Positions 1,212 through 4,164 of a stretch of DNA of 64,000 nucleotides are shown piece by piece (positions within the stretch are counted from its first letter, which is position 1; every line of letters begins with the position of its first letter). The stretch comes from Candidatus Latescibacterota bacterium. Lineage in GTDB: Bacteria > Latescibacterota > UBA2968. A model generated the notes under the pieces. That model did not search any database. It saw only the letters and a program-made list of their open reading frames with translations, and had not been told where the DNA came from. The stretch covers positions 2,528,001 to 2,592,000 of the forward strand of contig OZ242195.1 of the NCBI GenBank assembly GCA_965205975.1, read 5' to 3'. The position numbers were made by a program, and so were the translations under genes.

Positions 1212-1988
1212 ATGGAATCAGGTTCCGGAGCATTTAATTTTGATCGCGTCAAAGTATGGTATCATTGCCCGCAAGACCATCTTGCTGACCTACCAGTAGT
1301 ATTTGCCCTGCACGGAGCCTCACGCAATGCCAGCACCTATCGCGACACCTGGGCCGGTCATGCCGATAGACATGGCTTTTTATTATTGGCTCCAGAGTTT
1401 TCACAGGCAAATTACCCCGATGAAACAACATTTAACCTCGGCAATGTATTTGCCGAAGATGGCACGCGAAATGCCATGGTCGATTGGTCCTTCCAAATAA
1501 TTGAAGGCATTTTTGATCACGTCAAAAAACATGTGGGACTCCGGGCATCGTCCTACGGATTCTATGGGCATTCAGCCGGCAGCCAGTTTGTACACCGATT
1601 TTTGTACTTCATGCCTCAGTCACATGCACATATCTTTGTAGCGGCTAACGCAGGATGGTACACCATGCCCACATTCGAACAGACCTATCCCTATGCACTG
1701 TCCGGGTCGGGCCTAACTGTCGCGGACCTAAAACGGTCTCTAAGCCAGCGAGTTGTGGTACTCCTGGGCACTGATGATGTAGATGTGAACCACCCCAAAT
1801 TGAGACGCACGCCGCAGGCGATGATGCAGGGCGCACACCGTTTTGAGCGCGGTCATACATTTTTTGAAACGGCAAAACGAGAAGCCGAAGCACTAAACGT
1901 GCCATTTAACTGGCAGTTGGACACAGTGCCCAACGTGGGACACAACAATGCGGGAATGGCAAAAGTGGGCGTTGCGTATTTGGTGTGA
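1212..1988 (+). CDS. alpha/beta hydrolase (esterase/depolymerase-like)
   Basis: LHG oxyanion motif, GHSAG nucleophile elbow, C-terminal VGH; GAGG SD before ATG 1212. Confidence 0.8.
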   Translation: MESGSGAFNFDRVKVWYHCPQDHLADLPVVFALHGASRNASTYRDTWAGHADRHGFLLLAPEFSQANYPDETTFNLGNVFAEDGTRNAMVDWSFQIIEGIFDHVKKHVGLRASSYGFYGHSAGSQFVHRFLYFMPQSHAHIFVAANAGWYTMPTFEQTYPYALSGSGLTVADLKRSLSQRVVVLLGTDDVDVNHPKLRRTPQAMMQGAHRFERGHTFFETAKREAEALNVPFNWQLDTVPNVGHNNAGMAKVGVAYLV

Positions 1989-2080
1989 TCCGCAGAAAAA
2001 AACGCGAGTAATTTGAGCGTTTTTCGCAGATGAACGCAGATAAAAAAGAGGACTGGGGCTGGGATAGGCTAATCGCTTAT

Positions 2081-2120
2081 AAATAAAAGAATGGCCGCGA
2101 TCCCTGTTATCGCGGCCATT
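2081..2120 (-). terminator. intrinsic terminator
   Basis: 12-bp perfect stem AATGGCCGCGAT/ATCGCGGCCATT with 7-nt loop, followed by CTTTTATTT on the minus strand. Confidence 0.7.
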
Positions 2121-2425
2121 TATGTACTACAAGTCATAGAACCTCCTATGTCAGCCGATCGGGTGAGAGGCCCTAACACCCGACCGCTGGATACAGATTG
2201 GTGGCATAGTAACCTCCTCTTGTGAGTATTGCGGCCCGTCACACCCACTCGCGGTCCGATGAACTCTCTATGCCCTGTGTGTTTGCGCGAAGGTCTAAGG
2301 AACGGTATCCAAGTCGGGTTACCGAATGGCGGTAACAAGTCCGACGGGAAAAAAGACCAGATGTAAAACACGCGGGCAAGAACCCTCTCGAGCGGAATGC
2401 CGCCTGACGATTCATATCGCCTTTT
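2085..2425 (-). ncRNA. candidate structured RNA / small-ORF transcript of unknown family
   Basis: bounded by a minus-strand promoter and terminator; nested hairpins; no credible long ORF; two GGAGGT motifs ahead of 18- and 5-codon ORFs. Confidence 0.5.
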
Positions 2426-2430
2426 GTTAG

Positions 2431-2460
2431 AATATAACCCGATAAATTGTGGGATGTCAA
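2431..2460 (-). promoter_or_regulatory. sigma70-type promoter
   Basis: TTGACA(2460-2455)-18nt-TATATT(2436-2431) on the minus strand. Confidence 0.6.
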
Positions 2461-2568
2461 GACCTAATTTGACATATTTTTATAAGCATCTTTAGGTAAA
2501 ATTATGTACTATATATCAGTACCCAATCCACGCTAATCATTTCCGCTATAGAACAGGAGAACGCTGAT

Positions 2569-4164
2569 ATGGGATATGGCAAACGAGAAGATCCAAAATT
2601 GTTTCACGACGAGCAAATGCGTCAATATATCGCAGACGGATACGTGATTTTTAAGCCAAATGTGCCCGATGACCTGCACGAGACAATTCGGCAAAAACTG
2701 CAACTAATGGTGGATGAAGAGTTTAATTACGGCAACAACGTGCTACCCCGCGTCCCCGAGATGGACCGCATCTTAAACAGCCCAGAAGTGCGGGGCGCGC
2801 TCATCAGCGTACTAGGCCCGGGCTACATCGAACACCCGCATCGGTTTTGTCACTACATCTCGCCCGACGCAACACACAGAACACTCGCTCAAAATTGTCA
2901 TCAAGATTCTTACACTCCTCTGGGGCGCCCGCGCCAGCACTACCCGCGCTTTGCGCGCATCATGTACTATCCGCAGGATTCACCCGTTGAAATCGGTCCC
3001 ACACACGCGATTCCCGGCACACAGTATCACAGGCGATTGACAGATGAAGACCGCCAGAACGCCATTCCAATAGCCGGTAAAGCCGGCACAGTATCAATCA
3101 CGCACTTTGATATAGGACACGCGGCAGGCATCAACGCGCTTCGCCAACCCCGTCATATGATAAAATTTATTTACGTGCGCGCCGAAGAACCGACCGAACC
3201 CTCGTGGGATTGCCAGGATCATATCTGGCGAAACCCCGAAACATATAAAACGCCGCATGATCTGCACCTAATCTGGTCGCATATATGGGATTGGCTCTAT
3301 GGCAAAAAGGATCGATACGAAAGTTTTTGCGCATCAGACCCTGCAATTTGTGAATTAGAAGACCTGCATCACAACAACCTGGACAAACGACTCGCAGCCA
3401 TGCACTCAATAGCCGCAACAAAAAATGCCGATGCCATTCCAGCACTGATTAACAAGCTCAATACCGACGACCAGTGGACGCGCCTCGCGACTGTATATAC
3501 CCTGGGCGCAATAGGTCAACCCGCAGTACAGCCCCTGACAGAAGCCCTCTTAAATGTCGCCGCACACAAAGACGAGGACCCCGTACCCACATCCTGGAAT
3601 GAAGGCGCCATATCGATGGAAGATGCTGCCCATGCACTTGTCGCCATAGGCACACCTTCGCTAAATGCGCTGATTGGGCTACTGGACAACCCGAGCGAAT
3701 GGGCACGCATCAACGCGGCCTTTGCACTCGGTGAAATGGATACTCTGGCGGCACAAGCTGTCCCTGCACTCACGCGCTGTCTTGACGATGCGTCTCACTG
3801 CGTTGTGCGCACAGCCACAGATGCGCTGGGCAGCATTCGGAAAGATAGCGAAGAATTTATACCCGTACTCGAGCGACTGCTCAAAGTGGGACGCCCCGAA
3901 TGGCAAATGCCCGACCGACGCGACTGGACGCCCTATGACCAGGTCCGCGTCAACGCCGCAATGGCATTTACGCGCCTGGGCAAAGACGCTGCATCTGCCG
4001 CAGCTCTCCTGCTCGACACATTATCCGACCCCAACGGTCACGTCGCGGCATTTGCCCTGGAAGCATTGCGACGGATAGGCACGCCCTCGGCAATGGATGG
4101 CGTCATGGAATATCTGATGACGCGGCGATGGGATGAAAGCATTGAGAAAGGAAGATTGTTTTGA
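2569..4164 (+). CDS. phytanoyl-CoA dioxygenase (PhyH) domain fused to HEAT/PBS-lyase repeats
   Basis: HQD...H facial triad in the N-terminal half; repeated 'VR..AA.ALG.IG' HEAT units in the C-terminal half; AGGAG SD. Confidence 0.85.
   Translation: MGYGKREDPKLFHDEQMRQYIADGYVIFKPNVPDDLHETIRQKLQLMVDEEFNYGNNVLPRVPEMDRILNSPEVRGALISVLGPGYIEHPHRFCHYISPDATHRTLAQNCHQDSYTPLGRPRQHYPRFARIMYYPQDSPVEIGPTHAIPGTQYHRRLTDEDRQNAIPIAGKAGTVSITHFDIGHAAGINALRQPRHMIKFIYVRAEEPTEPSWDCQDHIWRNPETYKTPHDLHLIWSHIWDWLYGKKDRYESFCASDPAICELEDLHHNNLDKRLAAMHSIAATKNADAIPALINKLNTDDQWTRLATVYTLGAIGQPAVQPLTEALLNVAAHKDEDPVPTSWNEGAISMEDAAHALVAIGTPSLNALIGLLDNPSEWARINAAFALGEMDTLAAQAVPALTRCLDDASHCVVRTATDALGSIRKDSEEFIPVLERLLKVGRPEWQMPDRRDWTPYDQVRVNAAMAFTRLGKDAASAAALLLDTLSDPNGHVAAFALEALRRIGTPSAMDGVMEYLMTRRWDESIEKGRLF

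Follow-up and report, generated by a model that had tools for sequence, protein, structure and literature searches.

A conserved, class-wide RNA gene with an embedded ribosome site in Latescibacterota

The window analysed here, a stretch of 64,000 nucleotides from a Candidatus Latescibacterota bacterium, contains a real RNA gene that is undescribed, class-wide and apparently abundant, and that is a member of no RNA family tested. The gene is a conserved transcription unit with a covarying three-helix core and a two-hairpin tip set a fixed distance apart. Between the closing helix of the core and a hairpin at +21 lies a ribosome-sized landing pad, made up of a Shine-Dalgarno (SD) site, a start codon and two proline codons (Pro-Pro), and paralogues of the same anatomy precede genes for CBS-domain proteins. 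We tentatively favour the reading that this is a liberated attenuator-type RNA which titrates a hypothetical core-binding factor and is gated by ribosome loading. This scheme, in which we infer the partner and every dynamic step, appears to us plausible but short of probable.

Transcription unit, expression and distribution

The unit is on the minus strand, runs from a promoter at 2460-2431 to a terminator at 2120-2090 and is ~335 nt long; promoter, terminator and strand are those proposed in the initial annotation of the window. The -35 hexamer TTGACA (2455..2460, minus strand) and the -10 hexamer TATATT (2431..2436, minus strand) are separated by 18 nt and match the consensus at 11 of 12 positions, which would place the transcription start near 2425. 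The intrinsic terminator (2081..2120, minus strand) has a 12-bp stem and a U tract, the hairpin at 2120-2090 being followed by CTTTTATTT. In the 1.7 kb around the unit, promoter-like sites (3, compared with 2.2 ± 1.6 in shuffled sequences) and terminator-like sites (2, compared with 2.1 ± 1.5) are at the level expected by chance, and the folding energy of the whole unit is significant on both strands (z -3.51 on the minus and -4.06 on the plus strand), so that energy cannot assign the strand. The reality and strand of the unit were therefore taken from its relatives. In 21/21 genomes of the genus both hexamers are without variation and the terminator stem is kept, with a compensatory change from U-A to C-G in 5/21, while the flanks diverge, which argues that promoter and terminator are real. 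The core helices of the aligned relatives, read on the minus strand, contain 38 G-U cells against 9 A-C cells; this fixes the minus strand, for which the G-U evidence had earlier been called mixed, and, together with the conservation of the promoter, led to rejection of the plus-strand reading. The 173-nt rod described below does not differ significantly from shuffles in folding energy when taken alone (z -1.08). A 5' hairpin, P0 (2406..2421, minus strand; pair probabilities 0.6-0.83), is seen in the window's genus only, with a G-U to A-U change in its four most distant members.

The convergent neighbour, which ends at 1988, is an α/β-hydrolase-like gene according to a weak Pfam match below the cut-off, and an opposite-strand unit was not seen at the locus. 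On the divergent side, a PhyH-type oxygenase fused to HEAT repeats is encoded at 2569-4164; it is no fixed neighbour and is replaced in loci L024-L027. The spacer from the terminator to the convergent gene (1988-2045) is short and repeat-like, with CATCTGC-type units that differ in number among relatives, and is matched in RNA runs by many contigs from other places, suggesting a dispersed repeat.

Eighteen RNA runs contain a small share of a 1.6-kb query, and contig depth was examined in four of them, from four studies. In two of these metatranscriptomes the contig depth of the RNA, a poor measure of expression that is summed over strains, carries neither strand nor ends and is not suited to ranking genes, is ~10^2 to 10^4 times that of the flanking genes. 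In the sponge run X1, summed depth is 3.7-7.3e5 over 2148-2417 and 3e4 over 2094-2147, whereas the coding bins on either side have 0-143, and it drops from 4e5 in bin 2364-2417 to 16 in bin 2418-2471; in run X3 it is 881 at the RNA and 6-13 in the flanks. The proposed transcript is visible as enriched depth in X1 and X3, but not in X2 and X6, where depth is flat and without enrichment. Apparently these data reflect a discrete, abundant RNA, and they do not give its level.

A BLAST search of 41 genomes found one full-length copy in 21/21 members of the genus (70-100% identity) and in 0/20 others. With an iterated profile model the RNA family was detected in 28/53 genomes of the order and in 48/132 genomes of the class, representing 16/31 genera, and its share by taxonomic family is 28/30 in f1, 7/22 in f2, 2/3 in f4 and 10/76 in f3. 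It is thus class-wide but patchy, with no match to the profile model in 15/15 genomes of genus g6, most of them >95% complete. Full-unit paralogues were not found in the window's own genome, and the model matched nothing in 101 genomes grouped around a Gemmatimonadales record or in five other genomes, all searched without a positive control. Several candidates from pattern searches were discarded. Of 48 loci from a pattern scan of named genomes, 23 labelled as outside Latescibacterota were rescored and had no model match, and none of 14 pattern matches in viral contigs contained the core. Matches to a 16-letter core pattern were at chance level, and the recurrent one in g6 lies inside a coding sequence, RelA/SpoT-like by sequence reading alone. 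Five weak R2 matches (L182-L184, L186, L189) proved to be ordinary gene starts and were left out of alignment A3.

Fold and ribosome site

Three outer helices close a rod of ~173 nt (2403-2231). The 5' strand of this core (2380..2403, minus strand) consists of P1 (2403-2399), P2 (2395-2389), a purine loop and P3 (2384-2380), and the 3' strand (2231..2257, minus strand) of P3' (2257-2253), P2' (2251-2245), a G/U-rich loop (2244-2237) and P1' (2235-2231). The purine loop between P2 and P3 is GAAA in most relatives and GAGA in the window, and the conserved G/U-rich loop faces the P1-P2 junction. In 29 model-aligned sequences, an alignment fitted to the structure, 12/16 core pairs change on both sides (0/500 shuffles score as high) and 94% of cells are paired, compared with 33-45% for slid partners; an unfitted alignment of 18 sequences has 6/16 core pairs covarying and 96% of cells paired. 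Pair probabilities computed for the free window RNA are only 0.15-0.26 in the core helices, as against 0.78-1.0 in the variable rod (2258..2379, minus strand). The latter includes helices P4-P6 of the initial annotation, carries the tip, and is free to change in sequence between genera. That annotation had described a rod of ~110 nt, and its five helices are indeed predicted where it had placed them (pair probabilities 0.78-1.0), but the rod is ~173 nt long; what had been described is the variable middle, without the three outer helices and the two-hairpin tip that make up the most conserved part.

The P1-to-P1 span is 150-189 nt in 25/27 units, and in the first unit of L174 the core is kept and a short hairpin replaces the rod. 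The Y-shaped tip (2299..2345, minus strand) is composed of hairpin A (2345-2313) and hairpin B (2310-2299). By a motif rule, a two-hairpin tip is present in 28/40 units, with compensatory changes in the arms, and hairpin B lies 93-104 nt upstream of the SD site in 24/28. Core-constrained folds of the 29 sequences contain no internal loop conserved in place or size, and a central bubble of the 6S type was not found in them; the conserved parts of the fold are its base and its tip. A long-range 5'-to-3' helix given by RNAalifold for the window's genus has a probability of 0.0 in the window RNA.

Nearly all relatives have the same order of elements, with the rod followed by an SD site, the codons for Met-Pro-Pro (MPP) and a hairpin at +21. 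SD site 1 (2212..2219, minus strand), which can pair weakly with the Pro-Pro codons, is 11-17 nt 3' of P1, and the start codon is 21-29 nt from P1, each in 27/27 units. The 35 distinct start sites have ATG in 32 cases, GTG in 2 and TTG in 1; their second codon is always CCA or CCG, their third is one of CCG, CCT and CCA, and the arm of a GCG(G/A)Y hairpin starts at +21 in 31/35 and at +20 in 3/35. These counts are biased in part by the search itself, since the models and patterns include the SD-MPP stretch. Pro-Pro is missing in four copies, three of which have an SD site and a start codon (L176, L187, L279) and one a decayed SD site (L276). The last model added five homologues: SD-MPP and the hairpin are present in three of them, the SD site is decayed in one, and one has a start codon without Pro-Pro.

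In the window, the site opens ORF1 (2151..2207, minus strand), which encodes the 18-aa peptide MPPICIQRSGVRASHPIG. Its SD site, start codon, Pro-Pro, frame and stop codon are kept in 21/21 genomes of the genus, even across an in-frame 3-nt indel, and the remainder drifts; the stop codon is 3 nt 5' of SD 2. Hairpin 1 (2152..2189, minus strand) lies inside ORF1 and has the conserved GCG(G/A)Y arm from +21 of the start codon and no U tract. The 21 genomes contain 19 non-synonymous and 5 synonymous codon variants in ORF1, a ratio that gives no indication of purifying selection on the peptide. Across the family, peptide lengths range from 6 to 59 aa, Cys is frequent at position 5-7, and the +21 GCG(G/A)Y letters persist even 3' of the stop codon; the ORF1 peptide has no hydrophobic helix. 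Because SD site, start codon and Pro-Pro are kept while the peptide beyond MPP drifts, its length varies and the +21 letters outlast the stop codon, we conclude from the sequence comparison that translation is probably selected and the peptide probably not. The variation of start and proline codons and the position of the arm agree with what is expected of an attenuator, in which a short ORF overlaps a terminator-like hairpin; translation itself we infer. Selenocysteine read-through of the ORF1 stop codon was rejected, the frame 3' of it not being conserved.

SD 2 and ORF2 (2120..2148, minus strand; MTCST, 2137-2120) form a second copy of the SD-ORF-hairpin module. In the genus, AGGAGG plus ATG is present in 14/21 genomes, the SD site is weaker in 3 and the start codon is lost in 4; this second module is decaying there and is kept in g8, g9 and g10. 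Duplicated modules, with the ORF1 stop codon just 5' of SD 2, are found in g1, g8, g9, g10 and L246. The second micro-ORF is dispensable. Both ORFs exist as first annotated, and for ORF1 the description as a strong-SD micro-ORF holds throughout the genus, but the full SD site and ATG of ORF2 are limited to the 14 genomes; the idea of two functional peptides is not supported, given the codon variants of ORF1 and the four lost starts of ORF2.

Genomic contexts and the alternative helix

Most rod-bearing copies are free-standing, the next gene being convergent in g1, g9, g11, g17, g27 and g49 and in two paralogues. At this locus, as at most loci of the genus, a convergent gene comes next, and no regulated gene was found downstream on the same strand. 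Which gene converges on the unit depends on the genus (esterase, PdxA, enolase-like, TIM barrel), and g10 has a second terminator and a new promoter 3' of the unit. Genera g9 and g11 belong to different families and share a convergent PdxA-like neighbour, which points to an early origin of the free-standing state.

In other cases the copy is a leader. Such copies stand before a CBS-domain gene in g2, g3 and g5 (L088/L089, L174, L181/L278), and in g8 a copy lies 35 nt 5' of a ZTP riboswitch and a 2-hydroxyacid dehydrogenase gene. Genes for a transhydrogenase, an epimerase and sigma-70 factors follow further copies and may have their own promoters; sigma-70-family genes adjoin L121, L173, L175 and L237. 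The unit had been called an orphan at first, which overlooked both the class-wide family and these attenuator-like copies before genes. In L086 (1856-1943) and L085 (382-468) the ZMP/ZTP riboswitch (53 bits in L086) is located directly after the terminator of the unit and before a gene for a D-2-hydroxyacid dehydrogenase. Behind the MPP module, the CBS gene of L200 appears truncated and that of L278 frameshifted near its start.

The SD-MPP-hairpin module also occurs without a rod, before the CBS gene of the window's own genome (C1:4583736) and before a redoxin and sigma-70 genes; its pattern matches 59/132 genomes of the class, some by chance. The leader of the CBS gene in the window's genome (G000:C1:4583540-4583860, L092) has a promoter, an SD site with the 7-codon ORF VLPKPDS, SD-MPP and a terminator, and no rod. 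In relatives (L174, L060) the first position is taken by MHRPDT, MPTRPDT or LPRPDT, a second type of micro-ORF. In genus g22 (L185, L235, L236, L238, L239) there are free-standing promoter-to-terminator RNAs with SD-MPPD..RL hairpin modules and no rod, the modules being in tandem in L185 and further hairpins present at the 3' side. A second paralogue in g9 (L226, L227, L202) has a tip-like hairpin, an MPP(V/A/E)C(R/K) ORF and a terminator, and is followed in L227 by a PTPS-family gene. The copies L179 and L180 of g18, between ferritin and NAD-dependent epimerase genes, have lost the 5' half of the rod, which is intact in L234. A divergent unit with tip hairpins, an MPP ORF and a terminator (L231:1313-1700) precedes a PAS-domain histidine-kinase-like gene, named by sequence reading.

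The P1' strand and the linker can alternatively pair with ORF codons 4-9, including the 5' arm of the hairpin. This helix has 15 bp in g8 and g10, where it is kept through G-U changes (-24 to -30 kcal/mol), and in L088 it reaches -21.6 kcal/mol; the values for g1, g9 and g17 are weaker, from -5 to -14.5 kcal/mol. Among representatives of 12 genera, cognate P1'-ORF pairs beat permuted ones (16 of 20000), a signal driven by three genera, of which two resemble each other in sequence. The P1 and antiterminator helices, which exclude each other, are predicted to be strong in g3, g8 and g10 and weak in the window's genus, in which the cognate pair is no better than foreign partners. In the ensemble of the window RNA the alternative helix has a probability of 0.0. 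Support for the predicted switch is thus good in some leader-type copies; in the window copy, where the helix is weak in the genus and absent from the ensemble, gating by refolding is doubtful.

Relation to known RNAs and possible function

The locus (1500-3200) has no Rfam match at E<=10 except one chance hit, and the whole window has none. On 21 related loci the unit was likewise unmatched, the sole match being the separate ZTP riboswitch beside two homologues, and Rfam places no known riboswitch aptamer class at the unit. ARAGORN found nothing in the window. As the first annotation had it, the unit carries no signature of tmRNA, RNase P RNA or SRP RNA, each of which is encoded elsewhere in the genome (C1:160399-160783, C1:2308245-2308616 and C1:567303-567403, respectively). 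Its description as a novel, free-standing structured RNA is thereby upheld, since the unit is without an Rfam match, 6S included, conserved in relatives and enriched in two of four RNA runs. A survey of 224 motifs reportedly names one after Latescibacteria, and identity with this RNA is thus possible, though nothing in Rfam 15 matched. Literature searches turned up no account of the RNA, and the main text of PMC5737381 does not contain the word Latescibacteria.

In the liberated-attenuator reading, the core, which is marginally stable alone, would bind a cellular factor, in the simplest case a protein. The core is taken as the site of the partner because it is weakly stable yet most conserved, and a macromolecule makes most sense as partner because the RNA is a free, abundant copy of a leader element. 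In the leader copies, a bound factor or a ribosome on the micro-ORF would hold P1 closed and block the P1'-to-ORF antiterminator, allowing the terminator to form, and a ribosome past the slow, EF-P-dependent Pro-Pro step would melt the terminator. The window copy has no gene to switch and would instead soak up the factor, and ribosome loading on ORF1 would determine how it folds, where its 3' end lies or how long it lasts. What would count is that the ORF is translated, not which peptide results. The retention of SD-MPP suggests that ribosomes still act on the RNA, and EF-P is encoded in the genome. Cited passages of PMC5021804 report that, when EF-P is missing, ribosomes stalled at prolines ahead of an intrinsic terminator increase termination: in E. 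coli a polyproline stall upstream of the pyrL terminator lowered expression 26-fold without EF-P and under 2-fold in the wild type. Likewise, passages of PMC8934632 describe short nascent chains with consecutive prolines that stall and drop off more readily without EF-P, and a part of PMC6614838 reports that attenuator RNA can act in trans. Several findings count against this reading: CsrA and Hfq were not found in the genome, the alternative helix is weak in the window's genus and its permutation signal comes from three genera, runs X2 and X6 lack enrichment, four copies have no Pro-Pro, and the rod-less SD-MPP-hairpin RNAs of g22 are left unexplained by a core-binding decoy.

By analogy, the RNA would work like a leader-peptide attenuator and possibly also like a mimic RNA. 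The E. coli ampC leader is a ribosome-coupled leader attenuator, and CsrB and RsmZ are protein-titrating mimic RNAs. With the pyrL/pyrBI-type attenuators, as described in part of PMC5021804, the RNA shares an SD site and a short ORF that runs into the 5' arm of an intrinsic terminator, in some copies also an alternative helix, and the Pro-Pro stall could set the coupling. Unlike them, it has no run of regulatory codons, a conserved 170-nt rod upstream and, in most copies, no downstream gene. rnTrpL of Sinorhizobium meliloti, according to passages of PMC6614838, is an attenuator RNA with a leader ORF and a role in trans, but it is set free from its own operon and pairs with a target, whereas here the RNA has a separate gene and its conserved parts are helices and internal loops, with no seed. 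Like GlmY (PMC4152352) and other mimic RNAs, a free copy of a transcriptome element could titrate its reader protein; unlike GlmY and CsrB/RsmZ, the RNA stands in a genome where neither CsrA nor Hfq was found and has one large folded site in place of repeated GGA loops. The letters around the GAAA-bearing helix loosely resemble the P2 helix of the c-di-GMP-I (GEMM) riboswitch, but the GAAA here is an internal loop leading into a long rod, a second aptamer helix is missing, and no scanned locus had an Rfam score.

To our knowledge, few bacterial RNAs are as abundant as tmRNA, RNase P RNA or 6S RNA, and the present one belongs to a class of marine and sponge-associated bacteria without a recognised 6S RNA. 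An RNA that is both leader and free gene is a natural test of attenuators turning into trans-acting RNAs, and the covarying 170-nt fold with its exactly placed Met-Pro-Pro tests whether the N-terminal Pro-Pro/EF-P step is a sensor. For probing, pull-down and cryo-EM, both the rod and the 70-nt core of L174, which lacks the rod, can be used as they stand.

Among the alternatives, a CsrA/RsmA sponge, one of the functions first suggested, has a negligible probability. GGA motifs are present in the SD sites, some in an ACA(A/G)GGA context, but there are only two, both followed by spaced start codons, and PF02599 has no match in the 98%-complete, single-contig genome (the control was positive in 3/14 reference genomes). 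That the RNA is the mRNA of a functional small peptide, either a dual-function RNA or a type I toxin message translated under the control of its long 5' fold, is very improbable: the ORF1 frame and stop codon kept in 21/21 genomes across a 3-nt indel and the frequent Cys would agree with it, and the excess of non-synonymous variants, the range of lengths, the +21 letters kept past the stop codon and the lack of a hydrophobic helix or an opposite-strand unit speak against it. We also consider it quite unlikely that the unit is everywhere a cis-acting metabolite riboswitch or attenuator, whose output at this locus would be either the peptide levels or antisense RNA from read-through into the convergent cytochrome c/esterase genes. 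An aptamer-like core with a dispensable extension, the exclusive P1 and antiterminator helices of g3, g8 and g10, the tandem arrangement with the ZTP riboswitch and downstream genes tied to nucleotide or redox state (CBS, transhydrogenase, NAD-dependent enzymes) are in its favour; however, the convergent gene changes between genera, the second terminator and new promoter in g10 would leave read-through without a target, flanking-gene depth is low in X1 and the peptides are not conserved.

Two further readings turn on the expression machinery, and we give little credence to the one in which the RNA parks ribosomes. Here the SD site would load a 70S ribosome, Met-Pro-Pro and the hairpin at the entry point would hold it near the start codon, core and tip would touch it, and the RNA would store or titrate ribosomes. 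The fixed geometry (P1 to start 21-29 nt, hairpin at +20/+21 in 34/35, tip to SD 93-104 nt in 24/28), the retention of SD-MPP-hairpin in free-standing copies, in tandem repeats and even without a rod (L185, L235-L239), and the proneness of short consecutive-proline chains to stalling and drop-off without EF-P (PMC8934632, in part) are consistent with it, but an ordinary attenuator needs the same geometry and EF-P is present. The hibernation factor HPF is present in 49/53 genomes of the order, leaving no gap to fill, and a role of the RNA as HPF replacement was rejected for that reason. It is unlikely, too, that the RNA belongs to a new class of abundant bacterial RNAs linking both expression machines or storing one, with the rod docking on the ribosome at Met-Pro-Pro or binding RNA polymerase until released by ribosome loading. 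If it did, a non-coding RNA would read the spare translation capacity of the cell directly, with the copies upstream of CBS and sigma-factor genes serving as built-in reporters. A 6S- or Ms1-like RNA, with a rod that would bind RNA polymerase (with or without sigma) and an added micro-ORF module that would couple release or stability to translation, is similarly unlikely. With 6S (RF00013) and Ms1, as covered in parts of PMC9130861, the RNA shares an apparently abundant, free-standing, rod-shaped form of 170-340 nt that is mostly single-copy, and several loci adjoin sigma-70-family genes. Ms1 (~300 nt, with extra 5' and 3' hairpins, according to the same passages) fits in length and flanking hairpins; compared with a 6S size of about 180-200 nt, the rod has 150-189 nt in 25/27 units and the unit ~335 nt, the very high depth in 2/4 runs spanning 2148-2417 in contigs that give no ends. 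However, 6S RNA is described there as a hairpin whose unpaired central bubble is conserved and resembles an open promoter, and no such bubble is conserved here: from genus to genus the internal loops shift or disappear, and conservation lies in the base and the Y tip. In addition, a ribosome site is obligatory and one copy has the core without the rod. The RNA was also not found in 15/15 genomes of g6, and the locus has no 6S or Ms1 score at E<=10. As a member of the 6S family, the RNA, for which a divergent 6S-like identity had initially been suggested, fails on structure and on the Rfam model alike, though it may still bind RNA polymerase. RF00013 has no match at E<=1 in the window's genome and Rfam finds no 6S RNA in any f1-f4 genome of the sample, a point in favour of this reading. 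In the 151-genome sample of the phylum, the 6S model gave six sub-threshold matches alone, all in families f9 and f12, which have nothing in common with the new model. These full-length matches (L190-L195; <=43.2 bits, compared with a cut-off of 46.4) are probably the real 6S RNA of the two families.
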